Positions 1-42,061 of a stretch of 64,000 bases of DNA are shown in pieces (within the stretch, counting starts at the first letter, position 1; every line of letters starts with the position of its first letter). Location: the IMG/VR virus record IMGVR_UViG_3300024272_000034; one strand, 5' to 3'. The position numbers and the translations under genes were made by a program. This stretch comes from a virus. Below the pieces are notes generated by a model. The model was not told where the DNA came from. It ran no database searches and saw nothing but the letters and a program-made list of their open reading frames with translations.

Positions 1-2
1 CT

Positions 3-773
3 GGTGCAGGACTTATTGAAGGTTCTAAAGATGTTAAGATTCAAGTCCATGTAGCAGAGCAGACTGACAAGACATATGTTACCAGTGAAGGTGATGCTTT
101 AATTATTACTGAACAAGTAATTTCTAAAGACCCTGATGCTAGTATCTATGTAATGGTTATGAAAGATGGCGAGATTGAGACCGAGCCTTTTGTTGGAACT
201 ATTTTAGATGCTGAAGGAACTTTTGAAGCAGTTAATGTCACTGAAAAGGAACAGGCAGAAATCACAGCAGCTATTGCGGCAGGTAGAGCAATTGTAATTG
301 AGGATATTGCTGACCCAGCTTATACTCCTAATCCTACTGATGTTACTACTGAGGATGTTGATAGTGGTTATACTGAAAAGATTCGTGGTTTCTACGATGG
401 CGCAGTTGTAATGGTTGACTATTATACTGAAAAGGGTAAGGGTGCTCAGCAAATTGAAATTACTCCTGATAAGTTCGGTGGTAACTATTATCTTGAGGCT
501 TCTACTTTATTCCGTGATACTAATGGTGTAGATATGCCTGCTGAGTTTATTATTCCTAACTGTAAGATTCAGTCTAACTTTACCTTTACTATGGCTAGTT
601 CCGGTGACCCATCTACATTTACATTTACTATGGACGCATTCCCGGATTACACTCGTTTTGATAAGACCAAGAAAGTTTTGGCTGCTATCCAGATTATCAA
701 CGAGACTCAGAATGAGGAAGTATATCGTAGCAGAACTATTCATGACCCTGCTCACGATGCTATTTTAGGCTAA
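3..773 (+). CDS. putative major tail (tube) protein, 5' partial (continues upstream of window)
   Basis: Frame 3 is open from position 3 through the TAA at 771-773. It lies two small genes upstream of the tape measure gene. The protein is acidic and beta-rich with a TFTFTM repeat. The functional call rests on synteny only. Confidence 0.45.
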   Translation, partial: GAGLIEGSKDVKIQVHVAEQTDKTYVTSEGDALIITEQVISKDPDASIYVMVMKDGEIETEPFVGTILDAEGTFEAVNVTEKEQAEITAAIAAGRAIVIEDIADPAYTPNPTDVTTEDVDSGYTEKIRGFYDGAVVMVDYYTEKGKGAQQIEITPDKFGGNYYLEASTLFRDTNGVDMPAEFIIPNCKIQSNFTFTMASSGDPSTFTFTMDAFPDYTRFDKTKKVLAAIQIINETQNEEVYRSRTIHDPAHDAILG

Positions 774-778
774 TTTAA

Positions 779-988
779 ATGATTATCCATTCTAGTAGAG
801 CTACCAAGCTTGCGCCAGTGGCTTCTCCCAAGCAGCCTGAGGCTCAGCCTAAAGTGGAGAAAAAGCCTGAACGCAGACGTAAAGAAAAACAAAATCATAT
901 TGAAGTAGCTGAACAGTTACCAGTAGCTGAAAAGGCGAAGAAGATTTTGGAAGAAATAGAAGAAGAAGTTAAAAGTGAAAATGAATAA
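779..988 (+). CDS. small Lys/Glu-rich hypothetical protein (69 aa)
   Basis: ORF directly after the tail gene, followed by a hairpin terminator. Confidence 0.4.
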   Translation: MIIHSSRATKLAPVASPKQPEAQPKVEKKPERRRKEKQNHIEVAEQLPVAEKAKKILEEIEEEVKSENE

Positions 989-993
989 AATAA

Positions 994-1030
994 GGGAAGA
1001 GATAGAAATATCTCTTCCCTTATTTTTATT
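994..1030 (+). terminator. rho-independent terminator
   Basis: GGGAAGAGA-loop-TCTCTTCCC hairpin followed by a T run. Confidence 0.6.
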
Positions 1031-1048
1031 TAAAAGGAGGTTTAAGGA

Positions 1049-2158
1049 ATGAAATTCAATTCATCAGATAATTTATTAAACAAATTAAAGGAAACTAGTG
1101 AAGGAGCAAAACTTGCTAACACCGTTGATGAAATACATAAGTTATTATCTCATATAGGTAATAAAGGGGATGAGACTATAGCTTAGAGGGCTTCTGATTT
1201 TTTAACTTGGCTTTTATTTAATAAATCTATGAAGAATAAACTTTATCTTAGTGATGCAGTAAGAAATCAGTTATTAGAAAATCCTATAATTTTAGATGTA
1301 GTTAATTTTTTTAAGCAAAGCTCTTCAACAAGTCAAAATATTCAACAAAATCTTGCAAATTATAATGAAACCTTTTTGGGTGATTTCTACAATCAAAGAG
1401 GTATTACAACTGAACAAATGTTTGTAAAACTTATAAATAATTTTATTGTAAATGGTGAAAAAATTCAACATAGTGGAAATGATTAGGCTACTGTTTGGTT
1501 ATCTTCATTAGCAAAATATCTTGTTCAAGAGGGTGCTAATGAATTAGATAACTCATTCAAAAATTTGGTTAATGAATCAAATTTAATTAAAGAAAATAGA
1601 AAATTACGTTTTGCTTATAGAGATGTAAAAATAGATACAAGGTCTAACAATCCAAATGCAACAATTTAGTTTGGAGTTGAAGATGAAAAATTATAGGGTG
1701 ATTTACAAGCTGTATATTCAGTATTTTCTAGTGCAACAATTAAATCCAAAAATGATTTAAAAAATATTGATTTAGAGGAAGTAAATATTTTAAAAGCATA
1801 TTCAGCTTTTATCAATTATGCTCGTGGTAAAATTCCGCAATCAGAAATTAAAAATTTATTTGTTAGATATTATAAAGATAATAATGATGATTTTGTACAT
1901 AATCCATATATAACTTTACATATTAATCATATTATTTCAGTATATGCATTAACTGGTATGGGAACCACATTACAATCAGATTTAAATAGTATGCTTAAAG
2001 GTGCTCGCTATATAGTTGTTGTTGATAATATAAAATAGAAAGTAATTATTCATTCTACTCATGAAATCATTAATAAGATTTTATTAACAAAAAAATATAG
2101 CAAAAATATAGTGACAAATATTCAATTGAATTTAACAAGCAAAAGCTTGACAAAATAA
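1049..2158 (+). CDS. hypothetical protein, tail assembly chaperone candidate (369 aa with TAG read as sense)
   Basis: RBS AAAGGAGG upstream. The track ORF 1229..1486 and its flanks are in one frame, interrupted only by in-frame TAG. It ends at TAA 2156-2158. It lies between the major tail and tape measure genes. Confidence 0.5.
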
Positions 2159-2175
2159 AAAATTTTTGGTATAAT
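2147..2175 (+). promoter_or_regulatory. sigma-A type promoter TTGACA-N17-TATAAT
   Basis: Exact consensus -35 and -10 hexamers with a 17-nt spacer, upstream of the gene at 2205. Confidence 0.55.
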
Positions 2176-2204
2176 AATAAAAAAGAGTTAAAGGAGAAAA
2201 TAAT

Positions 2205-2729
2205 ATGGCAAAATTAGCATTTTCAAAACTTGGTTTAAAAGCCAATCAAGAAACTACTGTTATTTAGATTGATGAATACGATGTAGAAATTAAAAATTAT
2301 TTACCTATTAATGATAAGTTAGAATTAATTACGAATGTAATTAATAATTCAATTGATGAACATAATTATATGAATCCTGTTAAAGTAGATATGTATACTG
2401 AATTGGAAATTGTTGAGAAATATACTAATCTTACTTTTACTGATAAACAGAAAGAAGATATTGAAAAGTTATATGATTTACTTAAAGGAAATGGTATTAT
2501 TTTCAAGGTGTGTAATGCTATTCCAATAGAAGAGATTATGGAATTGCGCAACGCAATTAATCGGTCAGTAGATTCAGTTTATACATATCGTAATTCTGTG
2601 CTTGGTATTCTTGAGACAATTTCTACTGATTATTCAAATTTAGATTTTAATGCTACTGAAATACAGAAGAAGTTGGCAGACCCGCAGAACATGGAGTTAC
2701 TTAAGTCTGTATTAACCAAATTAGGCTAA
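2205..2729 (+). CDS. hypothetical protein, second chaperone candidate upstream of the tape measure gene (174 aa, 1 in-frame TAG)
   Basis: RBS AAAGGAGAAAA precedes the ATG. It is in frame with track ORF 2370..2729 across one TAG. Confidence 0.5.
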
Positions 2730-2767
2730 TAATATAACCTATTTTTTTAAAAAGAAATAGGAATAAT

Positions 2768-2800
2768 CGGATGTGAGAGATTGTTCTCACATCCGATTTT
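2768..2800 (+). terminator. rho-independent terminator
   Basis: CGGATGTGAGAG-ATTG-TTCTCACATCCG hairpin followed by TTTTTTATTTT. Confidence 0.65.
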
Positions 2801-2840
2801 TTATTTTGAACGAAAAGAGTGAAAGGAGTAATTATATATT

Positions 2841-5800
2841 ATGGCTCAATAGAGATTTGATTTTACATTAGGTATAAAAGCTGATACAAGTCAAGCCGAA
2901 TAGAAAATGAATGAGTTGGCTAATTCTTTGAAAAAAATTGCGTCAAATCCTCCATCTTTATTAGATGATTAGGATTTAAAAGATGCTACGAAATCAGCGC
3001 AAGAATTAGAAAAACATTTGTCTAAAGCTGTAAATGTAAATACTGGTAAATTAGATTTATCAAAATTTTCAAAAAGTTTATCCTCTGCTGGATAGGATTT
3101 AACATATTTTTAGAAAAATTTATCTAAACTTGGCGTAGAAGGTGAGTAGGCATTTTTAAAACTTGCTGAAAATATTGCTATGGCTGAAGTGCCAACAGTG
3201 CGTTTAAATAATCATTTAAAGAATTTTTTAGATGAATTAATTAAAGTCGGACGTTGGCAATTGAGTTCTAATATTATGCACGGACTGTAGGGAGCCATTT
3301 AGACTGCTTATGGTTATGCGCAAGATTTAAATGAATCATTAACAAACATTAGAATTGTTACTGGTTAGACTACAGATGAAATGGCTAAATTTGCGTTAAG
3401 AGCAAATGATGCGGCAAAAGCTTTAAGTACAACTACTACTAACTATACAGATGCGGCATTAATCTTCTATCAGCAAGGTCTTGCGGAAGATTAGGTTGAA
3501 GAGCGCACAAACACAACAATTAAAATGGCTAATGCTACTGGTGAAAATGTTACAAAGATATCTGACCAATTAACTGCGGTTTGGAATAACTTTGATAATG
3601 GTACCAAGCCATTGGAATATTATGCTGATGTTATGACTGCGTTAGGTGCGGCAACTGCTTCTAGTACTGATGAAATCGCTGAAGGTATTGAAAAGTTTGC
3701 TTCAATTTCTGAAATGATTGGTTTAAGTTATGAGTATGCGGCTTCCGCGCTTACGACCGTAACAGATGTCACTCGTCAAAGTGCCGATGTAGTAGGTACT
3801 GCATTTAAAACGATTTTCGCACGTATTTAGGGTTTAAAACTTGGTGATACATTAGAAGATGGTACATCTTTAAATAAATACTCATAGGCTCTTGCTTCTG
3901 TTGGTATTTCTATTTTTGATTAGAATCAACAATTAAAAGATATGGATGATATCCTTGATGAGATGGGCGCTAAATGGTCATTACTTAGTAGAGACTAGCA
4001 AGCTGCGCTCGCGCAAACTGTTGCTGGCGTAAGACAGTACAATCAGCTTGTATCTCTTATGAATAACTGGGATTTCTTTAAATAGAATGTAAATGTAGCA
4101 AAAGGTTCTGAAGGAACTTTAACTGAACAATCAGCTATTTATGAAGAAAGCTGGGAAGCATCTTTAAAGAGAGTTAGAGCTTCTGCTGAAGGTATTTATG
4201 ATAGTTTAATTGATGAAGAATTTTTTATTAAGATTAATGATATTTTTGCTAAATTATTAGAAGGAATTAATGGAGCAATAGATGGTATTGGCGGATTTGA
4301 AGGAATTTTAAAAACTTTAGGTAGTGTATTTATGTCTTATTTTGCTTCTAAAATGCCGAAAGCATTATCAGGCATAAGCAATACTTTTAGTATTATTACT
4401 GGAAAAGCTTTAAGAGATACTTAGAAAATACAATAGGAAAGTATTAATAGTTTATCTAAAATGCGTCCTGATGCTACTAATGCTGAAAAAATTTAGCAAG
4501 AAGGATTGAAAAAAGTTGCTATTTTAAAGCGTGAATTAACTAATATTTCTAATAAATTAACTGAAGAAGAAAAAGAAGAAAATTAGAATAGAATATAGCA
4601 AACCGCAGATATTTATGCTAATGCTGCTGCCATTGAAAAAGAAGCGGCAGAATTAAGAAAACTTAATGAAGAAAAAATTAAAAGTTCTTCTAATCAAATT
4701 ACAAACGAAGCTTTCGGATTTAGAGAAACTATTGCTGAAGATCAAAATCAAATAAATACATTAAGTTAGATATAGAATAGAACAAAATTAGATGATTCAA
4801 GATTAGATAAAGCTACTTCACGAGTTAATGAATTAACTGAGCAATTTTTTAAATTAAAAGATGCTATGGATGAAGTTATAGAATCTAAACAAATAGCTTT
4901 TGATAAAAAAGATTGGGAAGAATTTTCTAATATGGGAGAATTATTAGATTTTGATAGTAGAGAATCTAAAGAGTATTTCCAATATGTTGGAGAAGGAATT
5001 GATTAGTTAAAAGCAAAATATATTGATTTTAGAAAACAAGAGTAGTAGTATGAATATTTAAAAAATAAAATAGATATTAATAAAGCAGCTTGGACTGCTC
5101 CTGATTTTAATTTATCTTTGGATGAAGCAAAAAATTCTATTTCACAATATTTAAGACAAATAGATGAATTAAAAAAATAGGGATTTGTTTAGTTAGATAT
5201 AGATACAACAGAGTTGTAGTCAAAATTGAAATCAACTGATGTAACTGTTGAGGATTTACAAAAATCATTTATTTCTTTTTTAAATAATTTATCAAATAAA
5301 GCTTCAAAAACTTCTACAAGTTTTTCAAAAGATGGCGATAAGATTCATAGTGCATTATTAAAAATTTTAACTCCTTTAATGGGTGATAAAAGTCAAGCTG
5401 AAAAAGCAATTGAAGGTCTGCGCACAAAATTAGCAGAATTAACAGAAGAAGAAATGGATTCTGTTTTACGCACAACTGGAATGTTATCGGAAAGAGTAGA
5501 TGAACTTCCAAAACATGCTTATAAAGCCTCAGAAGCTATAATGGAACTTGGAAGTGCTTTAATGTCTTTAAATTCTTTTATGAATTCTGTTAGTAGTACT
5601 ACTCAAATACTTGAAGATAATACTGCTTCTATGGCTGATAAAATAGGAGCTGTTGTTGGAGCAGCTTCTACTGGAATTTTTACTTTTAATTAGACTAAAT
5701 AGGCAATGATTGCTGTTGTTGGAGCTGTAAGTAAATTTGCGGGAGCGGCAACTACAGCCGCCAAAAGTGGAGCTGCTTTATCGGGAATTTTAAGTAAAGG

Positions 5801-8800
5801 TTTAGCTGCTATTGGTGGCCCTACAACTTTAATTATTGCAGGTATTACTGCAGCAATAATGGGGTTAGTTGGCTTTTTAGGTACTAAATCAGCTGAAGCT
5901 GAAAAAGAATTAGAAGAAATTGAAAGAAAAACAGAAGAGCTTAATAATAAAATTTCAGAACAGTATACAGAAATTGAAACTAATAATGAATTAATTGAGT
6001 CTTATGAAAAATTATTAAATACTTATAAACTTACAGGTGAAGGAAAAGATTAGCTAGATATAAAAGCTAAAGAATTAGCTGAGGCTTTTAGAATTGAAGG
6101 ATCGGCTTTAGCAACTTTAACTGGTTAGTATGCTGATTATGAAAATTTATTAAATAAAGCTAAAAATAAATCTTATAATAATGTTAATGAACAAATTAAT
6201 TTAGTCCAAAATAAAAGAAATAGTAGTATAAAAGAATTTAATGATATTATTCAAGCTAAAAAGCATACTGATGATGTTGGGCATATAATGAGTAATCTTT
6301 CTTAGATTTCTTTATTTTCACTTAATGATGTTAATCGTAATTATGGCACTAAAAATGAATCTTCAAACGGAGATATGGCTGCTTTTAGAATTATTGATGA
6401 TTATTTAACAAAAAATAATTTAGGAGAAATTGGTAATAAAAATAGAAAAAATGGTACTATAATGACAGCTGAATTATTAGTTTCAGATATGGAAGAAGCT
6501 GTTAAGTTATTTGAATAGTTAGAAAATGAATTATTACCACAAGTAAAAGCTGTTAGTAACGGTCAAGAGACTAAAGAATTTGAAGAAAAAATTAAAAGTG
6601 CTAGAGAAGTTTTGTCAAAATATGTGGCATCAGATTAGGAATTAAAAGGTTTAGAATTAGCTTATAGTTTTAAAGATAAAGATTTTGAATCATTTGAAGA
6701 ATATAATAATTTAATAATTGAAACAGAAAATCGTTTAAAGAGCTGGGGATTTAGTACAAGTGAAATTGAATCTACAATTAATACTGCAATAAATTTAATT
6801 CCAGATTTAAAAATAAAACAATATGAAGAGTTAAGAGAAGTTGTAGAAACTTTATTATCTAATGGAGCTGGTAAAGGCATTACTGAAGGATTTTTAGGGC
6901 AATTATTTAGTGATGCTGAAAAAGGTGTTGGAATTTATGATAAATTAACTCTCGCTTCTTTAAATTGGTCAGTTTTAACAATTGATAATTGGGAGAAAGC
7001 TGCTAGTGCAGTTTAGAATTATACAAATGCAATTAAAGATGCCACTAATGCTCAAGAATTAAGGGATAGTGCTAAAAATGCTTTATCTTTATTAGAAGAT
7101 GGTTTAACTGAAAAAGAAGGCGAAGAGTTAAAAGGACTTATAGATTGGGGTAATGAAGAAAAAGGTATAGTTGAATATACTGAATTCTTAAAAATGAACC
7201 TTGAAGAGCAAAAGTCCTATTTGGAAGATTTTGCTAATATTAATTTATTTGAAAGATGGACCGATGAAATTCAAACTTCTAAAGATTTAATTGAATAGCA
7301 AAAATTACAGTTAGAAGATACAAAAAAAATATTAAAAAATGATTTATTATCTGTTTTAGATAGTGATGGTAGTTATCAGCAAGGTAATTACAGAAAAGTT
7401 TATGAATTATATGATTTAGATAAATGGTTTGAAAGTGAACAAGCTTTTGTTGATGCAATTTCTAACCCTAAAATGTTAGATAAATTGCTTAATAATCAAG
7501 ATTTTCTTATTACTATTGGCATTGATGAAGCTGAACTTATTCAAAATGCTGAAAATACTATTAATTCTGCTGAAGAATCTTTAGAATTAGAATTAAATAC
7601 TACTCCATCTGAACATTCTATAAAATATTTATTAGATGAAATTGAATCTCTTGAAACAGAATTAACAGTTAAAGCAAATACTTTAGAAGCAGATGAAATC
7701 CTTGATGAATTATTAGATAGACAATATCAATTAGATGTCCATGTTAATGCCGTTTTAGGTCAAGAACTTGATAAAAATTTAGAAAAGATAAAAAGTTTTA
7801 GTGATACTTTATCTCTAATTGGGGAAAATTATTAGGTTAGTGCAGATAATCTTCATGCTTTAGAAGCAGTAATTCCTGGAATTACTCAAAAATTAACTGT
7901 AAGTCAAGAAGGATTAATTTAGCTTCATAAAACTGAGGCAATTGCGGCAATTGAAAATACTAAAGCAAATACAATTAGTTCAAAAACAAAAATTTAGAAT
8001 CGTATTGATGAATTAAATGTAACAAAAACAGCTGCTGAAGCTGCTTAGAAAGCAATTCAAGCTGAAATAGATAAAAACTTAAAAGATGAAGAGACTCGTA
8101 CTAATGCTGTTAATAAAATGGCTGAAATTAGAGCCAATTATCAAAAAGCAACTAATGAAGGTGTAGCAGCAGATTATGCTAAAACATCAGCAGAAATGTC
8201 AGAAGATAGTGATGACAATATGGAAAATGATGTTGAAAATGCTAGTATTTCCACAGCTGCTTATGTAGAAAAATTCATTGCTTTACATGCTAATACTGAA
8301 AACTATAAACAAGAATATTTAAAATTTGTTGAAACTATGCTTTTAGCTGATTAGGCTGCTTTAGCTGGAGATCCTGTAGCTTTAAGTGCTTTATTAGGTA
8401 ATGTATAGGCTGTAAAAGATTTAGGTGGTACTGCAGAATAGATTGCTTAGGCAGAATTAGTAGCTAATGAAATGAAATTAACGGCTTCTGAAAAAGGGCA
8501 AGTTATCTAGTATAATGCTGCTATTGTTTAGAATAAAATCAATGATGAAGGCAAATTTGATTTTTCTGGTACGAGAAATGATGAAACTGGAAAAACAATA
8601 AAAGAATCTGAAGAAACGAAGAGAAAAACAGAAGATTATTTAAATAATTTAGCAAAAGAATATGCAAAATTAAATGAAGATACTGCTAACGAATTTTTAC
8701 AAAATCACTATGATTATTATGGTTCAATTATAACTTCTAGTGATGAAGCAATTGCTAAATTAAATATTGATTTAGCTGAAGAAACGGCAGCTCTTAATTC

Positions 8801-11800
8801 TTTAGATTAGATGATAGTAAATATAAAAAATGGAAAAAGTGCTACCGGAACCTCTTCACAATCTTCTGAAACTTTACAAGAAACAGTTAAAGAACATAAC
8901 CCTTATCAAAATGTTGATAATACTATTGAAGCTATTAATCTAAAATTAGAAGAATAGAAAGCTATAACTGAAAATTTAGAAAAAGGCACTGAAGAACATT
9001 TAGCATCTTTAGAAAATGAGCGCTTATTAACAGCAGAAATTGGTAAATATCAACAAGAGAAACTTAATATTGCTGAAAATGAATTAGCTACTTTAGAATA
9101 GAAATTATCTCAATTTGGAGCAGAATATGACCCATTAACTAGAAAAATTGTTAATTATGATGAAATAGTTAATGCTAAAGCAAGAGAAGTTGATAAATTA
9201 AATAAAGAACTTGCGGCCGCTTCTGGTCCTGAAAAAGAAAGATTATAGGAGCAAGTAAATGCTGCTGAAAAGCTTTATAATAATGTTAAAGAGTTAGCTG
9301 ATGAACATAGCAATACTGTTGATATTATTAATGATACTACTACTGCTTTAAGAGAAAATGGTTAGGCTATTGAAGATAATATAAAAACACAGGAAGAGTT
9401 TAATAAAGAATTACAAAAAGCAAGAAAAGAAGTAGAAAAAACAAATAAAGAAATTCAAGAAACCATTGATAATCTTAAAGATGAAGTAGATATTTACCAT
9501 CAATTAAATCATGAATTAGATAAGTAGAATGAAGAATTAGATAGATTAAGTAAATTAAAAGATTCTTTATATGGTGAAAATCATATAAAAGCAGCTAAAT
9601 AGGAATTAGAAGTTGTAAAACAAACATAGAAAACATATGAAGATTTACTTGATACTACATTAGATGACCTTGAAAATGCTATGGGTAAAGCTACTGTACA
9701 TTTTGATACTAAAATTGTATATGATGAAGATGGAGCAATTTTAAATTATCAAGAGTTACAGGAAGAATTAGTTCGTAAAGCTGAAACAGCTGCTAATGAT
9801 TTAACAGCTGCTAACATTCATTCTTTAACACTGCCTGAAGAATAGCGCGAGGAATATTTAAAACCATATCAAGATGCTTATGATAATGCTTTAGCTGCTT
9901 AGAAAGATGGATAGGATGCTATTAATAAAGTTCATGATTTAAGAGATTAGGCTTATAATTATGGACAGCAAGCAAGAGATAGTTTCTATAAAGGTTTAGA
10001 CCTTTAGGCTGAATTATGGGATTATAAATTTAATCTTTAGATTGAAATCAATGATAATGATTTGGAAGAATTAGAAAAGCAATTAGAAAAGATTGAAGAT
10101 AAAGGCTATGAAATGTCTGAAGCAATAGCTTTAATTAATACAGATTTTAGAAGTCTTTATGAAAATAATTATACATATTTACAAAGTGAAATTGATAATT
10201 TATAGAGTATGTATAGTGCTGGAGAAATTACAGAAGAAGCATATATAGAAAGATTAAAGAAAATCCAAGAAGAAGCCAAAGAAGCAGCGAATGAACTTGA
10301 AGAACTTGATGAAAAAGTATATGAATATTATGGCATTACATTAGAGAAAGCTAATGAAGAATTAGAATTCTATATCAAGTAGATGGAACATGCAACTGAG
10401 GTATTAGACCACTATAAAAATATTATTGAATTGGTTAATGGTGAATACGATTATGAGCGTTTAGGTATCGTTCTTGAGGGTTAGGCACATAATCTATAGA
10501 ATGAAATGGAAGTTGCTGTTAAATGGTTTGAGACCTTAGATGCGGAAAAAGCTGCAATTGAAGCTGAGTTAGCTAATCCTGGCATATCTGATGAATAGCG
10601 TGAAAAATTAAAAGAAGCTTATGAACCTATTTATGAAGCTTGGATGGAAGCACATGATGAAATGTTATCTAAAACTACTGAATGGGTTGAAGCAACTAAA
10701 GCAGTTATGGAAAATACTATGGCAAAAGCTGCTAGAGATTTAGAGATGTCTTTCACAGATGGCGTAGGTTTTGATGCCTTAAACGATTCTATGGATAGAT
10801 TAAATGAATATTCTGATATTTATTTAACTAAAACTAATCAAATTTATGAAGTTCAGAAAATGATGCGTACTGCTCAACAAGCCGCAGATAAAACCGACAA
10901 TGCTTCATCTAAACAGAGATTGAAAGCATTTATGGACGAACTGGGAGATTTACAAGAGAAAAATAAATTAAGTAATCTTGAATTAGAAATTGCGCAAAAG
11001 AAATATGATTTACTTGAAGCACAAATTGCTCTTGAAGAAGCTCAAAATGCTAAATCTACAGTTAGATTACAAAGAGATTCTGAAGGTAATTTTGGTTATG
11101 TATATACTGCTAATTAGGAACAAGTTGCTGAAGCTGAAACGCAAGTATATGAAGCAGAGCAAGAGTTATATAATTTAGCATTAGAATCTGCCAATGATTA
11201 CGCATAGAAGCGTATTGAATTGCAGCAATCATTATATGACGATTTAGTTGAGTTAGAAGAAAATCGTGTTGCTGGTATGTATGCAACTGAAGAAGAATAT
11301 AATAAAGCTCGTGAATAGCTGATTAAAGAATATAATGATTTATTTATTGCTTATGAGGATTAGTATAATTTAGCAATTGAAGCTGATGGTTATTTAAGAG
11401 TTTAGATTGCTGAAAGACATAATAAACAACAATTATCTGATACTGTTGGATTTTTAGATGAATCCACATAGAATATTCTTGAAACAACTACATTACAGCA
11501 AGAAACATGGATTACTCATTTTGATAATATTTTAGAAAAAACTCGTGGATGGCGTAATGATACCAATAGTGAATATGATTAGTCTGCTATTGATGCTTCT
11601 GAATGGTTAACAGCAACGCAAGGATATTTGAAAACTTGTGAAGATTCTTATAAAACTTGGTAGACTACAGTTACTGAACAAAATAAATATGTTTAGGAAG
11701 CTTTAGTTCATACTCAGGGAGAAACTGATAAATTAACTACTGAAAGTGATGAATTAAAAACAGCTTTAATTGGTGAAGATGGAAATGGTGGTCTTGTAAA

Positions 11801-12761
11801 AGCTCTTGGAGATGAATTATAGAAAGTTAGAGAGTTAATTACAGAATATGCTTTACAAAGTAATGGATTAGATATTTTAGCTGAAAAATATGAATCTTTA
11901 AGAGGTCAAATTGATAGTTTAATTTCATCAATTAATAGTATTCCTGATTGCGCTGAATGGTGTGTAAAAACATATGGAGATGGCGGAATGGGAGGAGGAG
12001 ATACTGGAGGTAATTTCCCAGTTGATCCTGACCCAGTTTTTTCATCTGATGATGATGATAGTAAATTTGGTTGTGGTGATCATACTGCTACAACAGCAGA
12101 TGATATTAAAGATACATCAATAACATCAAATACTAATAAAAATTATGCTGTAGAATCTGCTAAATATTGGAAAGGTCAACAAAGTATTGGAGAAGCTGCT
12201 GCTAATTTAGGAATTTCTGTTAGTGAAATGAATAAAATAAATATGGCTTTAGCGGGTTAGACTGAAAATTGGAATGGTACTAAAATTTTCACTGAAGAAT
12301 TTGCTGATTAGAATTTATCTGATGATTATGAAAGAACTCAAAAAAGTGGATTTGATGAAATTATTAATAATCAACAATCTGCTGCTAATGTAAATAAATG
12401 GCTTATAGATGAAGGTATAGCAACTGGTGCCACAGGCATGTATACTGGGGCTTGGGGTCCAGAAGGTAGATTAGCGTTATTGCATGAAAAAGAATTAGTA
12501 TTAAATAAAGAAGATACTAAAAATTTCTTACATGCAACCGATATTTTAAGAAGTATATCTGATGTAATAGATTTACAAGCTATGTCAAATCAATTTAATA
12601 CTTTATCTGCTAGTATCTATTCTGGTTCTTCTGGAATATTAGAACAATCAGTTCATATAGAAGCTAATTTCCCGAATGTATCTGATAGGAATGAAATTGA
12701 AGAAGCGTTTAATAATCTTATTAATACAGCTTCTCAATATGCGAATCGTAAAACTATATAA
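2841..12761 (+). CDS. tape measure protein, 3306 codons, with dozens of in-frame TAG codons read as sense
   Basis: All nine >=60-aa ORF fragments between 2841 and 12761 share one frame. The first ~2.4 kb was translated by hand and the only stops are TAG, about 29 in 795 codons. The protein is E/K/Q-rich coiled coil with the hydrophobic segment MIAVVGAVSKFAGAATTAAKSGAALSGILSKGLAAIGGPTTLIIAGITAAIMGLVGFLG. A LysM-like stretch lies near the C-terminus. It ends at TAA 12759-12761. Confidence 0.8.
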
Positions 12762-12872: not shown

Positions 12873-15800
12873 ATGTCAAATAAAAATCTTGGAGAACAAT
12901 TGTGTGAAGCTGTTGATATAATTGCTAAAGCAAGAGTTGGCAGTGTAGCATATGACCAAACTATTATATGTACAATAACTAATGATACTTTAAAAGATAA
13001 AGGTCAATATAAAGTATCAAATGGTTCAGCTGAATTTGATGCTTATACTTCTAATACAGAATATCGTTCAGGAGACAATGTATATGTATCTATTCCAAGA
13101 AATGATTGGAATGAACAAAAATTTATTATAGGTAAATATACTAATAAAGATACTGGTGAATATTTTGTATATCAAAATCCTTTTAATACATTAGTTGATA
13201 TTACTGGCAATGTAATTAATGCTAATGTTCCTACTAATGAAAGTGGATTAGTAGCTAATAATCCTAATGAAGAATATATTATTTTATGGTCTTATAATAT
13301 AAATAATGAGGCTTTACGAAAAGAAAATGGTAATATTTTTAGTGGATATACTAGATTAGGATTACAAGCATCTTTTTAGTCACTTATAAATCCTTTTAGT
13401 TATAAAGAATATGAAAAAAATGATGATGGCAGTTTAAAACGCGATGAAGATGGATTATTAATAGTAAAGAATTAGGCTAATTCAAAAATTATTGATGGTG
13501 AATATGGTTTGCGGCTTCGTTTAAAAGTAACTCAAAACTAGACACTTAGTGAAGTTAAAAATGATGGTGCCGCAAATAAAGAGGTAATTTTTTATCTAAA
13601 TACCGCAGATATGAATGGTAATCCATATAATTTTAATAATTTTTTCTAGCAAGAAAAAGTTTTTGATGTTTCTGAATATGAATCAATTCATTCAATTTAG
13701 ATTGAATTTTATCAAATTAAAGATTCTTTCATTGATGCTTCTGGATATAAATTACCTTATTTGGATGAATGGGGAAATATAACTGCTCCAAATTTATATG
13801 TTAAAGATGTATATTTATGTCTTGGATATGATACTAGCGAGTTTGATGATGAAATGATTAAAGTATATACTTTAGATACTTTAACATATTCAAGAAAAAC
13901 AGAGCCCTTTATGGATAATGCTAAACGAATTGATTTGCGTTGGATACATAAAATGCCAGATGGTTCATTTAAATCAATTACTAAAGCAGATGCCGCAAAT
14001 TATAATTTTAAAATTTAGTGGTATAGATATCAATTAGGTTCTCCATCATCTGACCAATATTCAGATAAAGAGTGGATTTGGTTATCTGACCAAGAAACAG
14101 AAAATGGAAAAAATTATTATACAATTTAGGATGAAGATTGGTTAAATAATAATTAGCAATATAAAGGTAGTGAAAAATATCCCGGTTTCTTTAACACTTG
14201 GTTAATTCCAGATGTAGCTTTAAGTACGGAAATGGTTAAAGCAATTATATTTTTTAATGGAAAACCAATTAGAAGTAATATTGTTATTTTAACAAATGAA
14301 AATGAAGTTGTAAGTCGTCCAACAGTAGATGCTTTAGAAGCACTTACAATTCATTGTAATAATGGATTAGATGAAGCTGGGAATCCAATTTATTCTGAAA
14401 ATTATTTAATTTATAATGAAGGTAATGAATTAATTGATGAATCTTAGGCAAAACAACCACGGCAATTTGAATTAAAATTTGACCCAGAAGTTCCAACAGA
14501 AGATGATGAAACTGAAGGTTTAAAATATGCTAGATATGTGGAATGGCGCATTCCAAAAAAGAATACGATGATTGTAATGCCGCCAGATTATAAAGATAAT
14601 AATGCTTTAGAAGATATTACAGACCCAAATTATTATATTATTAGACGTAATGGTGTTTTAAACGCAGATAATAAATATGTTGTTTATAACAAACAATCTT
14701 TTAGAATAGATAATTATTATTCTGCTGAAAAATCAAATAATACTGTTTAGTGTACTATTGAAAAAGAACCAAATACTTTTTATATAGCAACTGTTGATTT
14801 ATTGTTTGGAGTTGCTGGTACTACTGGAACAGATACAACTTTAGTAATTAATTTTGATGATAGTAGTCTTGGAGCAATTGATTCTGCTATATCTGGTAAT
14901 ACAATTATTACTGCTAAATTATATGATAGTGAAAATAAAGATATTACACAAACAGTTATTAATCAAGATTGTGTTTTTGAATGGAAATGGAAAGGTAAAG
15001 AAGAATATCCTCATGAAAAAATACAAATACTTTCTCCGGAAGATTATTCAAATGAATTAAAAGAACAAGTACAAAAAAATCAATGCGTTATTAGTAATAC
15101 AAATAATCTACCTTTAGAACTTAATGAATGGAATATTCTTTAGTGTACTGTTACAGGATGGCAAGATTATCCTTTAGTAGCTTATTTTGCTATTCCATTA
15201 AAAAGAGACCCTGATAATGCAGAAAAGCGCACTTTATTTATGGAGGGCGCCACAAGAATTATCTATGATTCTGCTGGTACGCCTTCTTATTATAAAAATC
15301 CATATAAATTATTTTATTCTGAAGATATGACAGGAGAAAATCAAGAAGGTGAAATAGAAACTATTAATCAAATTAATCAATATTTAGAAGATTAGGATAT
15401 GATTAAAGATGATTATAGTATACGTTGGTAGCTTTCTTATCATCCAGATTTTTAGACTCTAAATTACTTACCTTCTATTGGAATTTCTAAAAATTATAAT
15501 GATGGTTTTAATTATAATATTGGATTAAAAGCTATTAATGTATATGTTAAAGGTTGCGAAGATTATATTACAATTAATTGTATAGATAAAAATGGAACTA
15601 TATTATGGTCTTAGCCTTTATTAATTTTACAAAATAAATATCCATCATCTATGCTAAATAAATGGGATGGTTCATTATCTATTGATGAAACGGAAAATGC
15701 TATTTTAGCAGCTAAAATTGCCGCAGGTAGTAAAGATTCTGAAAATAGATTTAGTGGTGTTATTATTGGTGATTGGGGCAATAAAAAAGAATATAAAGAA

Positions 15801-18230
15801 ACTACTAATGCTTCTGTAGCGGAAATTGGAGTTTATGGTTTTCATGAAGGAGCTATGAGTTTTGGTTTCAAAGAAAGTGGAAAAGCTTTTATAGGTAAAG
15901 ATACTCGCGGACGTATTCATTTTGATGGAAATGATGGTTCAATTTATTCTTCTGCTTGGATTGCTAATTCAGAAGATAATCATAGAGGATTGTATTTGGA
16001 TATTGATGATGGTAATATTCAAATGCGATAGGAGTATGGTTCTGCAAATATAACCACCTTTATACAAGTACCTGTAAATACTATTAATTTTAAATCTAAT
16101 ATATATTATGCTTTTCAAGAATATATATTAAGTAAAGAAGGATATAGTGCCAGTAAAACTTATTATGAACCATATGGATATAAATTAGTTGATATTGAAG
16201 CCGGTGGATATGAACCTGGTATATATTATAAAAGAATAGAATCTTCATCTACTACTGGTTCTGGTGATAATGCTGAAAATATTAAAATAACAGAATATGT
16301 TTTAGATAATGAATCTTTTAATCCAACTAAAAATTATTATTATGTATCTGCTTTTAAAGAAAGTTCAGTGAGTGCTTCTTCTTATTAGATTAATAAATAT
16401 TATATTAAACAAGAGCCAAATAAAGATGAAGCAACAGGTCAAATTTTAATAAATTCATTGATTCCAAAAGAACAGACAACTTATTATAAACCTTTTTTAA
16501 CTTATTATGAATAGACAGAAATTTCTCCTAATAAATATATTGATTTAGCAACTAGTTCTAATGAAACTGATTATAGAAACGTTTATCCTCTATCTATTGG
16601 ATATGAAAAAAATGTTTATGAGCGTGCATTTAGAGTAAGTTGGGATGGAACTATTTATGTAGAAAATGGTGAATTTAATGGTGAAATTCATGCTACTTCT
16701 GGAACTTTAGGAGATTTGGAAGTAACAGGAACGCTTATAGGTGGAACAATTGTTGGTGGTGATATTTCTGGTGCTTGGATTAGTGGTAGTACTATTGAAG
16801 GTAGTAGAGTATACGCTGATGATTTAATCTGTTATAATGGTAATATTGCTGGTTGGCGCATTACTGAAAATTATTTAAGAAATAGTAATGGAACAATTGT
16901 TTTATATTCAGATGGTGAGCGTGGAGAATTGGCAAAATTTGGTGGATGGAAAGTTACTAAGCTTGGTTTTGAAAATCGTCTTGGAACTTATAAAGATGCG
17001 AATAATATTCGCACCACAAATAATTTTAGTTATTTAAAAGGCGGATTGATTAGTGGTAGTATTTTAGATACGCCATCTGGAGGTATGCTTTTAGCTGGTA
17101 AATTTAAATTAGCTTAGAGTTTAAGCCCTGGTTTTGATACTAATACTGGTATTGGAAATTATTTGCTTATTCCTGGCACTATTGGTGTTGTAATGTCTGA
17201 TATTGAAACTAGTCCAGATGCACCAGAATATTATGGTATAGGATTAGAATATGGTGAACCTGTTAAATCTTAGATAAAAGCTACAGCTGTTAATGTTGGT
17301 ATGCGTTATGGAGTTAATCAATCTATATGGATTACTGATAAAACAATCGGTTTAGCATCTAATGATGGTGATTTGTCATTACATTCAAAAGATACTATTC
17401 ATGAATATTCAGCTACAAATGTTAATATTGGTGTAAAAACTGGTTCAGGTAATAATGTTGAGTTATATCCTTAGTTTGAATCTTATTATAATGGTGGATA
17501 GCAAACAGTAACATTAGGAATTTATGCCAATGATGCTATTACTATTGGTCCAGTAGAAAATGTAGGGGCTTCTTCTTGTAATTTAATTAGAATAGGAGAA
17601 CAGTCTTTAACTATGGATATTGGAGCATGGACTACTAATTTAAATATTGGATAGAATGCATAGAATATTAAAATAGGAGAATTTGCTAAAACTATCATAG
17701 AAATTGGTAGTTCGGTTCCAGAGATAAAACTTGGAAGTACTTCCACACCAAAAATAACTATTGGTAATACGGGAGCCGCTGTTACAATATAGAATAATTT
17801 GTTGACACCAAATTTATATATTACAAATGGTTTTGAAGCTATTGATGGTAATTATGCTGGAACTATAGTTATGAATCCTTCAGGTTTTTAGTTATAGGGC
17901 GGTTCCTTTACTTTAGGAAAAGATGGAGCTTCTGTTAGTGGAAATATTTATTATAATGGTTCTATTAATCTTGAAAATGGATTTAATGTTACTAGTGGTT
18001 CAATAAATATTGGCGGCGGAGAAAATGAAGCAATATTTGGTTCTATATATTATTCTGGTAGTGTTAATTTAGGTAATGGTTTATAGATAACTACTGGTGA
18101 TTTAAATATTAAAGGTGGTAGTGCTACTTTTGATAATAATTTAGAAGTAAAAGGAACTGTAACTATTGGAAGCGGATTGACGGTTGCGGAAGGAGCTACT
18201 GTTACTGGAGTTTATGCTACTTTATTATGA
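12873..18230 (+). CDS. giant tail-tip/baseplate structural protein (1785 aa; distal-tail/Tal-like position after the tape measure gene)
   Basis: Seven track ORF fragments are in one frame joined only by TAG, ending at TGA 18228-18230. The C-terminal third has Gly-rich beta-helix-like repeats (IGGTIVGGDISGAWISGSTIEG, GSINIGGGENEAIFGSIYYSGSVNLGNG). Confidence 0.65.
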
Positions 18231-37519: not shown

Positions 37520-38689
37520 ATGGCAGCTGATGATAAAATATTAGCAACGTAGATTAGTACAAATTCTTCTTCCTGGTATCAAAGATTAAGAGCTATTTAG
37601 GCAAATAATAAAACAGGTATAGGCGGGTCTGCTTTATAGCAGACCGCCGACCCTGGTATCACTTCAGGAACGAAGATGACAGCAACACATATTAATAATT
37701 TTATTAATGCTTTAACAGCTTTAAAATCAAATGTATTTTTAGCTTATGCGGATTGGACTAATTATACTCCTTCTACTGTTTCTAGTGGTGGAAAAGCTAA
37801 TGCTTCTACTACATAGACTAAAATTAATAATATGTTAACATCACTAGAAAGTATATGTAGTAATTGTTAGACATATAGTACAAATAGTTATTCTAATACT
37901 TGTTCAAATAATGCTACAACTAGTTATTCAACCTATTCGGAAAGTATTGATAAATATAATTATTCTAATACATGTAAAACTACTTATAATTCCACAGAAT
38001 CTACAAACTCTACTTGGAGTGAAAGCTGTAAAACAACTTCTAATAGTACTAATAGCTATTGTTCTGATGCTAATTGTAGCGCTTATAGCGAGAATGAAAC
38101 TTGTGCAGAATTTTATGTTGGTAATAGCACTTATTCTACAGATAGCACTAGCTCAAATTCTACTTATGGAGTTGGAGATTCTACTTAGGCAACAGATGCT
38201 ACTTCTGTTTGTGCTACTTTATCAACTTATAATGATGAAATATCTTATAGTACAGATTGTAGTGATGGTTGTTGGGATTGTACTTTTCATTCTTATTGTC
38301 CTGCAGCTGAAGTAGCTACTTATAGCGTCGGAGAGTGTTCAACTAATGCTACTAATTCTGAAAATTCAACAGAAGGAGTTTGTAGCACTTGTAGTACTAA
38401 TTCTACTGATTTTTATTGTAATGAAAACTCTTGTACTGAACATACAAATAGAGGTACATATTCAAATCATTCACAATGTAGTACTTGTGGAAAAAACAGT
38501 ACATATAATGATACTTGTCAAACTTGTGAGACTGATTCAACCACATCAAATACAACTTATACTTAGTCAAATTCTACATATACTAACACTAATGATGGTT
38601 ATAGTACATATTCAAAAAAAGCTACATATGGAACATATACTAATACAAGTGGTAATTCAACATATTAGACTTATACGGTAAAAAATTAA
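37520..38689 (+). CDS. Cys/Ser/Thr/Asn/Tyr-rich protein (389 aa, 22 Cys, 9 in-frame TAG); candidate rSAM substrate
   Basis: RBS AAAGGAGGAA upstream. Codon-by-codon translation gives an ordinary ~100-aa N-terminal region, then ~290 aa of low-complexity S/T/N/Y-rich sequence with CxxC and Cx2-6C spacings (SICSNCQTY, SYCSDANCSAY, DCSDGCWDCTFHSYCP, CSTCSTNS, CNENSCTEH, CSTCGKNS, CQTCETDS). It ends at TAA 38687-38689. Confidence 0.6.
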
Positions 38690-38719
38690 TTGAAATGAGA
38701 TAAAGGAGAAAATATTTTA

Positions 38720-40078
38720 ATGTTACAAGATAGAGAAACAATTATTTTATATACTACAGCAGTATGTAATTTAAATTGTACTTATTGTTTTATTGATAAA
38801 AATCCAAGTTTAAAAAAGATAGATCAATGGCTTGATGATAGTTTTTTAAAAACTCCAGATTATTATTTTGAATATGCAAAAAAAGCCGTTTTACAAGAAA
38901 AACTAAAAGAAGTATAGATTTGGGGTGGAGAACCTTTTTTGGGTATGCATAGAGCCTATGCAACAATAGATAAATTTATTAATTATTTTCCAAATTTAAA
39001 AAATTTTATGACTTCTACAAATTTTGTATCTCATTGTTTTTTTGAAGAATTTTATGGACTTCTTGATATTTTTAGAAAGCATCCAAATAGAAATTTTACA
39101 TATAGTTTATAGTTATCATTAGATGGTGTAAAGGAAATAAATGATATTAATAGAGGTAATGGAGTTACTGATCGTTTTATTATTAATTTTGAAAAATTTG
39201 TTAAAGAATTACAAACTTTATTACCAAACAATTTAACATTAAAAATGCATTTAAAGCCCACTATTGATACAAATTCTTTGAAAAAATTATAGACTAAAGA
39301 ACAAGTTTTTGAACAATTTATCTTTTTTGAAAGCTTCAATGAAGTATATTTGAAATATAATAAAAAAAATAATTTACTATTTTCACTTCCAATTCCTAAT
39401 ACAGCTTGCCCATCTCCTCATACTCAAGAAGATGGAATAATGTTTGCAAATTATTGTAAAATAACAAGAGAGCTTGAAAAAGAAAATAAAAATAATAAAA
39501 TTTTTAAATTTTATAATAATATTACAAGCTTTACTCCAAGAAGAAAAATTCAATATGACAAACTTTCATTATCAGGATATTGTCAAGGTCATTGTGGTAA
39601 TGGAAAAAGAGCTATTGGTCTTTTACCTAACAATATGGTTTCTTGTTGTCATAATGGTTTTGTTGATTTGCTAGCTGAATATAAAAAGAATGTATTAACA
39701 AATAGTGAACATATGGATAATGTTACTATTGAAAAAAGTTTATTTAAAAATAAACGTAATACTTTAATTTTCCCTTATGATAGTAAAGAATTTGAAATGT
39801 ATCAAAAACAATTAGAAGTTTTTTATCAAAATGATGATACTGCCAAAATTTCTAATTGTGCTTCTTTAATTAAATTATTGGCTGATTTTGAACAAATTGA
39901 TAAAAAATATCAAGATAAAAAAGAAGCTGTTAAAGGTGCTTATTTTATTTTTAATACTACATCATATTGTGTTAGAGATAATTTAGGTGTGACTGGAAGC
40001 ATCTATATGTATCCTGTTGGTTTAATTAAATTATTGCTAAATGGAGCTAGAGAATATATTGAGGAAGGATGTAATTAA
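38720..40078 (+). CDS. radical SAM enzyme with C-terminal Cys-rich (SPASM/twitch-like) region (452 aa, 3 TAG)
   Basis: CNLNCTYC (CxxxCxxC) near the N-terminus and GGEP in IWGGEPFL. C-terminal cluster CQGHCGNGKRA...SCCHNGF. Track ORFs 38720 and 39350 are in frame across TAG. Confidence 0.7.
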
Positions 40079-41467
40079 ATGGCAAAGTGTTTAAATTTTT
40101 AGGAAGAAAAAGATGTTATTTTATGGTCATTAATTAATGATACATTTGGAAGACTTTTTTCTAAAGAAAAAAAAGAAGATATTGAACATGATATGGGGTT
40201 AGAAATTTATATAACCCCTGAATGTAATTAGAATTGTTCTTATTGTTATTTATGTAAAAATGGTGATGAACTTTATCCTAAAGAATTAAGAAATCCTACA
40301 ATAATTTTAAATAATTTAAAAATTATGTTAGATTATTGTATTGATAATAATTGGAATCCTGGAAGATTTGATTTTTTTTCTGGAGAAATTTGGGATACTG
40401 ATTTAGGTTATAATGTTTTAAGCATTACAGAAGAAGCAATAGAAAGAGGTTTTCACCCTAGACTAATTGTAATTCCATCAAATTTTAGTTTTATTTTAAA
40501 TGAAGAAGCTAAAAATAGAGTTGAAAAATTTATGGAAAAATGTAGACAATTTAATATAAAGCCATGTTGGTCTTGTTCTAATGATGGTTTATTGTTAGAT
40601 TTAGAGACAAGACCATTTAATTCAGATGAATTAAATGCAAAAAAAGATACTGAAGATTATTATAAAAAATTATTTGAATTTTGTAAAAAATGGAATTTAG
40701 GTTTTCATCCAATGGTGGCAGCACACGGAATTGAAAAATGGTCAGAAAATTTTTTATGGTGGATGTCAGAATTAAAGAAATATAAATTTGAAAGAAATTC
40801 TTCAATAATGTTTTTAGAAGTTAGAAACGATGATTGGACAGATGATAAAATTTATCATTATTTAAAATATTTAAATACTAGTATTAATTATTTAAATGAT
40901 GAATGTATTAATTTAAATACATTGTCTTTTGAAGATTATGTTAGAAAAACTAATAAAAATATTAAATACAATTATACACCTGTTATTTTAGAAAAATCAA
41001 GTTTATAGCCTGGATGCACTATTCATAGATCTTTAGTTATTCGTTTAGGTGATTTAGCAATAGTTCCTTGTCATAGAACTTCTTATGAAGAATTTATTAT
41101 AGGACATTTTAAAGTAGAGAATAATAAAATTATAGGAGTTACAGCTAAAAATATTCAAATAATGAATTAGGTATGGCTAAATAATATGAGTGGTAATGCT
41201 AAATGCACTAATTGTCCTTATAGCAATTACTGTATGAAAGGATGTTATGGTTCTTAGTTTGAATCTACTGGAGAATTATTATATCCAATAGAATCAGTAT
41301 GCAATTTATATAAAGCAAGAGCAATATTTATTTTTTATAAATATTTAAAAATGGGTATTTATAGAGAAGATAATCCCGAGGATAAAAAATATTTTGATTT
41401 TATTCAATCAATTAAAGATACGAAGGAGTTTAAAAAATGGTACAAAATTGTTTAGGAATTGATTTAA
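40079..41467 (+). CDS. second radical SAM enzyme with C-terminal Cys cluster (462 aa, 5 TAG)
   Basis: Start overlaps the upstream stop (TAAATG). The rSAM motif is CN(TAG)NCSYC, i.e. CxxxCxxC if TAG is sense. C-terminal CTNCPYSNYCMKGCYGS resembles SPASM. Track ORF 40325..41008 is in frame. Confidence 0.65.
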
Positions 41468-42036: not shown

Positions 42037-42061
42037 TATTAATAATTTAAATATTTCTAAA

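Follow-up and report, generated by a model that had tools for sequence, protein, structure and literature searches.

A TP901-type tape measure gene of 3,306 codons, read through 78 TAG codons, from a probable SPbeta-like siphovirus

Introduction

Can a stretch of viral DNA that carries 78 TAG triplets in one frame be a single gene, and if so, what does its product do? This question is raised by positions 2841-12761 (+ strand) of the virus record IMGVR_UViG_3300024272_000034, analysed here as a stretch of 64,000 nucleotides (nt) that we refer to as the window. A preliminary description, made from the sequence alone, had called the region an exceptionally long tail tape measure gene that can only work if TAG is translated. 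Our analysis leads to the conclusion, held at a probability of about 0.88, that it is a genuine single gene for a TP901-type tail tape measure protein (TMP) from an SPbeta-like siphovirus with TAG recoding.

Results and Discussion

The region is one open frame

On the + strand, window positions 2841-12761 form a single open frame: 3,306 sense codons, for a protein of approximately 370 kDa, are followed by a TAA stop at 12759-12761. The extent and codon count given in the preliminary description were exact. The frame contains 78 TAG codons, no TGA and no TAA besides the terminal stop, so that the internal TAA or TGA stops named at the outset as possible signs of several genes do not exist. In the remaining two + frames of the same span there are 165 and 520 TAA/TGA codons, and the chance of 3,306 codons without either triplet is about 1e-74 (assuming as little as 5% per codon). 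The start of the gene is well defined, because its ATG at 2841 is preceded about 12 nt upstream by the Shine-Dalgarno sequence AAAGGAG and because M1 is invariant across the alignment with relatives. The C-terminus can likewise be aligned with relatives to the final residues. Reading TAG as sense raises the number of residues covered by open reading frames (ORFs) in the window from 8.6k to 20.9k amino acids (aa). An IMG/VR contig of 23.4 kb (UViG 3300022661_000362, L011) has 100% nucleotide identity to window 1-4444 over its positions 7161-11604; it stops within the TMP gene, so the full TMP of the phage is absent from it.

TAG is decoded as glutamine

For all protein searches the TMP was translated with TAG as Gln. 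Comparison with database homologues is partly circular as a test of this decoding, since those proteins are themselves TAG-to-Gln translations, and it was replaced by codon-resolved tests within the family. Seven related loci (six unique sequences) use the standard code; their TMP genes are single ORFs of 2,678-3,260 aa in which TAG occurs in frame 0-2 times. Opposite the TAGs of the window, these standard-code relatives show Q in 26% of cases versus a background of 6.8% (p=1.5e-16). The TAGs of recoded relatives were found most frequently opposite query Q (10.2%) and query TAG (8.6%), compared with 2.2% overall. We further defined a conserved-Gln column as one with a Gln-type codon in at least 90% of 58 relatives. 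TAG accounts for 75 of the 406 codons in the seven such columns, as against 4 of 3,341 codons in 59 conserved K/E/L/Y/W/S columns. Set against cultured TMPs from more distant phages, the signal was noisy, K occurring opposite TAG as often as Q did. Taken together, the codon-resolved tests demonstrate decisively that TAG is read as Gln. The earlier proposal that TAG is a sense codon here, and that the full-length TMP needs its decoding, is thus borne out, and the recoding is confirmed quantitatively in a gene that needs full length to work.

These data also bear on the opposite view, that the region consists of several short genes or is a decayed pseudogene, with TAG a true stop under the standard code. 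Translation table 11 does split the region into pieces of at most 179 codons (the longest TAG-free run), the homologous region of phage Phass-1 is annotated in GenBank as many small hypothetical proteins, and no suppressor tRNA was found in the 64-kb window. Against this stand the 3,306 codons without TAA or TGA, the specific exchange of TAG with CAA/CAG at conserved Gln columns, and the same TAG pattern throughout the late gene block. Most directly, single-ORF relatives using the standard code align end to end with the TMP (the alignment of one of them, L053, spans query residues 1-3303), which removes the possibility of several genes; the preliminary description was right to treat the region as one. 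Phage TAG-to-Gln recoding is moreover supported in the literature, where the related Phass-1 group was studied by sequence analysis (PMC10607447) and crAss-like phages by metaproteomics (PMC9523058). We regard the short-gene or pseudogene explanation as effectively refuted already, its probability being close to nil.

The product is a TP901-type tape measure protein

The TMP matches the tape measure core model PF10145 (Pfam) at aa 189-396 with 91.4 bits (cutoff 33.2, E=9e-26) and TIGR01760 (tape_meas_TP901, NCBIfam) at aa 152-456 with 116.1 bits (cutoff 28.8, E=1.7e-33). Eleven PHROG tape-measure families also match, headed by phrog_34405 and phrog_4211, the profiles of which span about 2,650 positions. 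All three collections thus support the assignment first made from the sequence. Among 5.8 billion proteins searched there were more than 7,000 matches; the best 120 all belong to PF10145, measure 2,682-3,363 aa and come from contigs of at most 208 kb. A complete TMP ORF was present in 73 of 80 IMG/VR loci (median 2,893 aa), and 71 of these 73 ORFs fall within 2,678-3,299 aa. Overall identity to the nearest full-length relatives, Phass-1 included, is about 32-38%, and at the nucleotide level megablast matched the gene to none of 50,697 phage records, its relatedness being apparent in the protein alone; this makes the window TMP a new, divergent member of a known TMP type.

Comparison with 181 unique relatives gave the following module map:

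2841..4400, + strand: N-terminal module, aa 1-520, with the TP901-type core; about 50-69% column identity, 15 TAGs
4638..9440, + strand: hypervariable helical central spacer, aa ~600-2200; only 5-45% of relatives align
5703..5891, + strand: double hydrophobic, transmembrane-like segment within the spacer, aa 955-1017 (Kyte-Doolittle)
9438..11840, + strand: conserved helical module, aa ~2200-3000; 75-97% of relatives align, 24 TAGs
11841..12410, + strand: variable Gly/Asp/Ser-rich linker, aa ~3001-3190
12432..12758, + strand: C-terminal module, aa 3198-3306; 96% of relatives align, 59% identity

The hydrophobic segment described earlier is real: Kyte-Doolittle windows of 19 residues peak up to 2.14 at aa 955-1017, and the region aligns with residues 998-1157 of the TMP of Lactococcus phage AM4. 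The module at aa ~2200-3000 is also recognisable in Enterococcus phage VRE9_2 (E=9e-15); it matches nothing in Pfam, NCBIfam or PDB, and catalytic motifs are absent from it. The C-terminal module carries the motif TG.YTG.WG...LHEKELVLN...IEANFP...EIEEAFNNLINTASQYANRK, and its GGYTG motif region is common to SPbeta YomI, VRE9_2 and AM4; this module probably forms the end proximal to the tail tip. When modelled with AlphaFold2 (AF2) from a multiple sequence alignment, it shows two helices with a predicted local distance difference test score (pLDDT) of 70-86, the rest being extended, which is plausible for a segment that would fold only inside a trimer and tail-tip complex. With regard to fused enzymes, Pfam and NCBIfam give the TMP core only, and SLT, M23, DxDGD-type and HExxH motifs are absent from the TMP; a fused RNA polymerase or lysin was rejected as a candidate, no catalytic domain or motif being detectable.

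Hydrophobic periodicity at 3.5 residues is pronounced along the protein (mean power 15.2 versus 6.3±0.5 in shuffles), and 32% of the TMP windows exceed the shuffled 95th percentile for heptad-type periodicity, where 5% are expected. Prolines number only 29 (0.9%), and Gly+Pro is low over nearly the full length. The heptad periodicity and scarcity of Pro fit an extended helical or coiled-coil ruler. The description of the protein as an E/K/Q-rich coiled coil holds for the helical heptad periodicity, which is found throughout, and fails for the composition, which is E/L/A/K-rich (E 11.2%, L 10.1%, A 9.4%, K 7.8%), with Q at 5.7% (41% of it TAG-encoded). Self-BLAST of the TMP, a check for the internal duplications that had been considered, returned the identity match only, and the length of the protein is thus not due to recent internal repeats.

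All length differences among the relatives fall in the central spacer:

relatives of 2,678-2,785 aa: spacer of about 1,100 aa
window TMP of 3,306 aa: spacer of about 1,600 aa
relatives of 4,304 and 4,517 aa: spacer of about 2,700-3,000 aa

The two ends are conserved and the spacer is the sole length-variable part, from which we infer that the spacer would be the ruler proper. The module map thereby also indicates where tail length could be engineered.

The linker before the C-terminal module

A LysM-like stretch had been proposed near the C-terminus. It corresponds to aa 3101-3140 (nt 12141-12260), inside the variable linker, and did not hold up. Searches for LysM (PF01476) came back empty at E<=0.1 for the full protein and at E<=1 for both its C-terminal 277 aa and the 96-aa stretch on its own. 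The single-sequence AF2 model of aa 2995-3139 (pLDDT 46) depicts a disordered acidic/glycine linker with helices only over the stretch in question and no beta strands, so that this low-confidence model is all-helical there, in contrast to the beta-alpha-alpha-beta fold of LysM. The peptidoglycan-binding repeat CW_7 (PF08230) was also considered for the window's own linker and rejected, with no profile match even at E<=1. Among relatives, the linker of P0105 contains a bona fide CW_7 repeat (32.1 bits, cutoff 25) and that of P0112 a sub-threshold one (22.2 bits). SH3b-looking segments were seen in the linkers of P0096 and P0107, and the linker of the window resembles none of these inserts by sequence. 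At most, the linker appears to be a hot spot for wall-binding inserts in relatives.

Tail length predicted from the tape measure protein

To estimate the tail length we used the following phages with long TMPs and measured tails:

Perkons: TMP 2,439 aa, tail 380.6±16 nm, 0.156 nm/aa (PMC13245101)
SPbeta (YomI): TMP 2,285 aa, tail 320 nm, 0.140 nm/aa (PMC8270828)
AM4: TMP 3,280 aa, tails of genus-mates Phi949 and PhiL47 500 and 480 nm, about 0.146-0.152 nm/aa (PMC3888941)
P23-45: TMP 5,002 aa, tail 800 nm, 0.160 nm/aa

Extrapolated from the TMP length, the tail of the window phage is likely to measure 0.46-0.53 µm, and the figure near 0.5 µm proposed earlier is a reasonable estimate by the 0.14-0.16 nm/aa of measured homologues. 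The gene itself is far less unusual than the words "exceptionally long" and "among the longest" suggested. The median for the TMP family is about 2,900-3,100 aa, so that some 3,000 aa is the norm of the lineage. AM4 has a TMP of 3,280 aa, TMP ORFs of 3,149, 3,150 and 3,209 aa are published for the TAG-recoded human-gut phages of the Phass-1 group (PMC10607447), database relatives among the best 120 of more than 7,000 matches reach 3,318-3,363 aa, and the TMP of P23-45 has 5,002 aa. Two relatives are considerably longer: L012+L146 (IMGVR_UViG_3300031853_000052) has a TMP ORF of 4,517 aa with 64 TAGs, and L014+L145 (IMGVR_UViG_3300021254_000022) one of 4,304 aa with 84 TAGs, both with the same conserved N- and C-terminal modules. 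Both were recovered by exact-match DNA walking and had been missed by a scan for the conserved C-terminus. At 0.15-0.16 nm/aa they predict tails of about 0.65-0.72 µm, which would be second only to Thermus phages P23-45/P74-26; P74-26 holds the record with a tail of nearly 1 µm (PMC10034513). The window TMP gene neither extends the known limits of tail length nor reveals a new mechanism, and the phage belongs to a large, mostly uncultured SPbeta-like lineage with predicted tails from about 0.4 to about 0.7 µm.

The tail might be overestimated from the total length of the protein. It could be that the gene is a genuine TMP gene of which a part (the 2200-3000 module, the linker and the N-core) encodes cargo or globular domains, comparable to the lysin domains in SPbeta YomI or the RNA polymerase in the P23-45 TMP, giving a tail clearly shorter than 0.5 µm. 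Length varies in the spacer alone, the three conserved modules together come to about 1,400 aa, the ratio for SPbeta is lower (0.140 nm/aa), the P23-45 TMP has an N-terminal RNA polymerase, and relatives place small cell-wall-binding domains in the linker. However, the window TMP shows no detectable enzymatic or globular domain, helical periodicity and low Gly+Pro extend over nearly all of it, and homologues with at least the same N-core still come to 0.146-0.156 nm/aa overall. We therefore consider such a partial ruler unlikely.

The surrounding tail module

The genes around the TMP gene are as follows:

3..773, + strand: major tail tube gene, 3' part (YomU_Tube-like), cut by the window start; 0 TAG
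1049-2158, + strand: 369-aa gene between the tube and YomO-like genes
2205..2729, + strand: YomO-like 174-aa gene directly 5' of the TMP gene
2841..12761, + strand: tail tape measure gene, 3,306 codons plus TAA, 78 TAGs
12873..18230, + strand: 1,785-aa distal tail protein gene immediately 3' of the TMP gene, 28 TAGs

The tube gene is 49% identical to a gene of L001 with PF27173 (YomU_Tube) and 35% identical to a phrog_2729 protein of VRE9_2; the complete tube ORF, visible in L011, has 344 aa. The YomO-like gene is 51-55% identical to genes of L001 and L003 flagged (weakly) as PF27287 (YomO), matches phrog_30570 and occupies a position common to VRE9_2 and Phass-1; its position makes it a putative tail assembly chaperone gene. 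Downstream of the TMP gene, the 1,785-aa protein is syntenic with and 35-39% identical to the post-TMP gene product in L001 and L003, its N-terminus matches a "tail protein" of VRE9_2 and the gene after the TMP gene in Phass-1, and further tail genes follow in the window. The order tube, variable 369-aa gene, YomO-like, TMP, distal tail is syntenic with L001, L003, VRE9_2 and Phass-1. The 369-aa gene has no Pfam or PHROG match and no homologue at the equivalent position in the relatives compared. Its slot holds unrelated genes of 364-514 aa in relatives and appears as a variable spot in an otherwise syntenic tail module.

Genes around two database relatives carry the SPbeta-named Pfam families YonD_N, YonB, YomW, YomV_2nd, YomU_Tube and YomO. 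Upstream of the tube gene, L011 contains a series of homologues (51-79% identity) of L001 genes bearing SPbeta virion Pfams, and no sheath gene occurs in the upstream 10 kb. The SPbeta-like synteny without a sheath, together with the recoded late genes, identifies the tail module as that of an SPbeta-like siphovirus.

This neighbourhood also bears on whether the gene encodes some other giant virion protein, such as the ejected cargo or central-fibre proteins of crAss-like podoviruses. The recoding of TAG across the window and the presence of giant ORFs (1,785 and 2,050 aa) are superficially crAss-like. Nevertheless, curated TMP core models are matched above their cutoffs, the siphovirus tube gene and SPbeta-like synteny are present, and cultured siphoviruses with measured long tails carry homologous genes, which leaves this idea with next to no probability. 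A crAss-like giant cargo or RNA polymerase protein was accordingly rejected as a candidate, on the TMP models and the siphovirus synteny.

Proposed mechanism and points that weigh against it

The TMPs of lambda (gpH), TP901-1 and T5 (Pb2) provide the background for how the protein would act. A few copies of the TMP would build an extended helical bundle, held at the tail-tip initiator complex by the conserved C-terminal end. The tube protein would then polymerise around the bundle up to its end, so that the length of the TMP would set that of the tail. On infection the TMP would be expelled, and its hydrophobic hairpin may help to form a conduit through the envelope. Before TAG suppression becomes active late in infection there would be no functional TMP and hence no tail.

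Several results weigh against the conclusion that the gene encodes a TMP of a TAG-recoded SPbeta-like siphovirus, or against parts of it. The structure models, which cover TAG-free sub-segments only, are of low confidence (pLDDT 46 for the linker and 60 for the C-terminal module), and nothing usable came from the PDB when its sequences were searched with the first 600 aa, with aa 2200-3000 or with the last 406 aa. There is no canonical frameshifted G/GT chaperone pair 5' of the TMP gene, the overlapping ORF 2473-2715 ending before the YomO-like stop. ARAGORN detected no tRNA, hence no suppressor tRNA, in the 64-kb window; the contigs of relatives reach about 130-200 kb, and most of the phage genome lies outside the window. 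With regard to the tail, its length is an extrapolation; the ~1,400 aa in conserved modules may be partly globular and not add 0.15 nm per residue, and SPbeta, with two enzyme domains, gives merely 0.14 nm/aa. Finally, the relatives in bacterial genome collections all lie on phage-sized contigs from animal guts that were binned into metagenome-assembled genomes (MAGs).

Distribution of TAG among the genes

The TMP gene holds 78 of the 234 in-frame TAGs of the + strand genes of the window, the highest count of any, and by density (2.36 per 100 codons) it is second to one 167-aa ORF. TAG makes up 41% of its Gln codons, compared with 38-53% in other large late genes, and the high TAG count thus reflects the length of the gene. 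The claim that this is one of the richest sites of TAG usage is correct by count only; as a share of Gln codons, the TAG usage of the gene is what late genes ordinarily show. The N-core accounts for 15 of the TAGs, the spacer for 37 and the conserved 2200-3000 module for 24, while 2 lie close to the end, and no module is without them. The first is codon 4, and in 63 recoded relatives (53 unique) the first TAG mostly lies within the initial 60 codons. With a TAG at codon 4 and 78 in total, essentially no TMP would be made without suppression, and both the TMP and the tail depend on it. A 167-aa Gln-rich candidate ORF at 44600-45103 (+) has the top TAG density in the window (11 TAGs, 6.6 per 100 codons).

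Between about 47.7 kb and the window end, the - strand carries genes for the anaerobic ribonucleotide reductase NrdD, a split DnaE-type polymerase, a Dda-like helicase and RecJ; from 50.3 kb onward the replication genes there are essentially TAG-free. Late genes thus use in-frame TAG and early genes are largely free of it, as in the code 15 SPbeta-like and Phass-like gut siphoviruses. Within the late genes TAG is unevenly distributed, as seen when it is expressed as a share of Gln codons across 51-53 recoded relatives (the tube, YonB-like and head-module genes being surveyed in window 3-773, L011 866-7933 and relatives L012-L090):

tail tube: TAG 2.7% of Gln codons; no TAG in 43/52 loci
YonB-like: TAG 1.4% of Gln codons; no TAG in 43/52 loci
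272-aa head-module gene: TAG 1.9% of Gln codons; no TAG in 40/51 loci
TMP: TAG 38% of Gln codons; no TAG in 0/53 loci
YomW-like: TAG 44% of Gln codons; no TAG in 3/52 loci
YomV-like: TAG 53% of Gln codons; no TAG in 0/52 loci

A 313-aa gene is also among the high users (38-53% of Gln codons as TAG across recoded relatives), and the paired difference in TAG share between TMP and tube is highly significant (p=3.5e-10). Because the highest-copy virion genes (tube, YonB-like and the 272-aa head-module gene) nearly avoid TAG and the low-copy TMP gene does not, TAG could conceivably be a Gln codon of graded, low efficiency through which virion assembly is gated and its stoichiometry set, although we consider this rather doubtful: ordinary codon-bias selection against a slow codon in highly expressed genes would account for the same data with no regulatory role. 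If TAG were graded in this manner, the yield of full-length TMP would scale as (per-codon efficiency)^78 and the TMP would be the tightest suppression-dependent checkpoint; tail assembly would wait for near-complete suppression, and tube and capsid subunits would accumulate regardless. By this scaling an efficiency of 0.99 per codon would give 46% and one of 0.95 would give 2%, and a useful amount of TMP would call for at least about 0.99. Across the family, the most abundant virion proteins avoid TAG, and this offers a testable hint on suppression efficiency.

Host and other genes in the window

The MAG labels of the relatives are inconsistent, mostly Clostridia, Bacilli, Erysipelotrichaceae and Oscillospiraceae, and binning artefacts are possible. 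The window has a guanine plus cytosine (GC) content of 28% and encodes NrdD, and these two properties fit an anaerobic low-GC Bacillota host; the phage probably comes from an anaerobic, probably animal-gut, community of such bacteria. Other genes of the window are listed below:

37520-38689, + strand: Cys/Ser/Thr/Asn-rich 389-aa protein; no Pfam match, 8 TAGs
38720-40078, + strand: radical S-adenosylmethionine (rSAM) gene; PF04055, 34 bits; CNLNCTYC
40079-41467, + strand: rSAM-looking gene; CNQNCSYC; no Pfam match
between the rSAM-looking gene and the aldo/keto reductase gene, + strand: 199-aa ORF
42023-43138, + strand: aldo/keto reductase fused to a 4Fe-4S dicluster domain
58176-59600, - strand: DnaE-type polymerase, N-terminal PHP part; phrog_405 positions 41-443
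57170-57952, - strand: GIY-YIG/NUMOD3 homing-endonuclease gene between the DnaE halves
54540-56852, - strand: DnaE-type polymerase, C-terminal part; phrog_405 positions 503-1096

The cluster at 37520-43138 (+) sits in the TAG-recoded late block. It may encode a maturase system whose substrate would be a Cys-rich protein, either secreted or part of the virion. Positions 45400-46194 (+) encode a Gly/Cys-rich protein of 264 aa in which cysteines cluster as CCC and CC (CCCETQ, CCYPSYGYGYGNTGCCGG) and the N-terminal region is hydrophobic.

Comparison with known systems

Thermus P23-45/P74-26 (TMP 5,002 aa, tail 0.8-0.9 µm) resemble the window phage in having a giant TMP at about 0.16 nm/aa. They differ in that their TMP has no detectable homology to that of the window, is about 1,700 aa longer and carries an N-terminal virion RNA polymerase.

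YomI of SPbeta carries lytic domains, and T5 Pb2 is a further TMP with a fused lysin. The neighbourhood of YomI (CwlP, 2,285 aa) shares the families of YomU tube, YomV, YomW, YomO and YonB with the window lineage, and YomI itself has a TP901-type N-core and a C-terminal GGYTG module like the window TMP; the SPbeta tail is flexible and measures 320 nm. Unlike the window TMP, in which no lysin domain is detectable, YomI is an annotated transglycosylase, is encoded in the standard code and is about 1,000 aa shorter.

The TMP of Enterococcus phages VRE9_2/EF1/H1 (2,673 aa) belongs to phrog_34405, the PHROG family that best matches the window TMP. VRE9_2 has the N-core, the 2200-3000 module, the C-terminal module and the same gene order as the window, whereas it uses the standard code and its TMP is about 630 aa shorter and 21-41% identical.

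The Lactococcus phages AM4, Phi949 and PhiL47 (Audreyjarvisvirus) are cultured siphoviruses with an AM4 TMP of nearly the same length and genus-mate tails of 480-500 nm. The AM4 TMP shares the N-core, hydrophobic region and C-terminal GGYTG module with the window TMP, at 23-29% identity in the N-core and hydrophobic region and 45% in a short C-terminal match. In contrast to the window phage, AM4 uses the standard code, has a different middle region in its TMP and has an integrase-like gene directly 5' of the TMP gene.

Another close system is the "Caudoviricetes code 15 clade" of Phass-1 (OQ749652), BK046881 and BK025033 (PMC10607447), which like the window phage has late genes recoded from TAG to Gln. 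Its very long TMP ORF (3,149-3,209 aa) is fragmented in standard-code annotation, and the N-terminal core, the C-terminal end, the YomO-like gene 5' and the related distal tail protein 3' are all shared with the window. Phass-1 has three suppressor tRNA genes, whereas none lies within the 64-kb window, which is part of the genome only. Identity to the group is about 32-34% over the aligned parts with no match at the nucleotide level, and the window phage therefore represents a different genus-level lineage.

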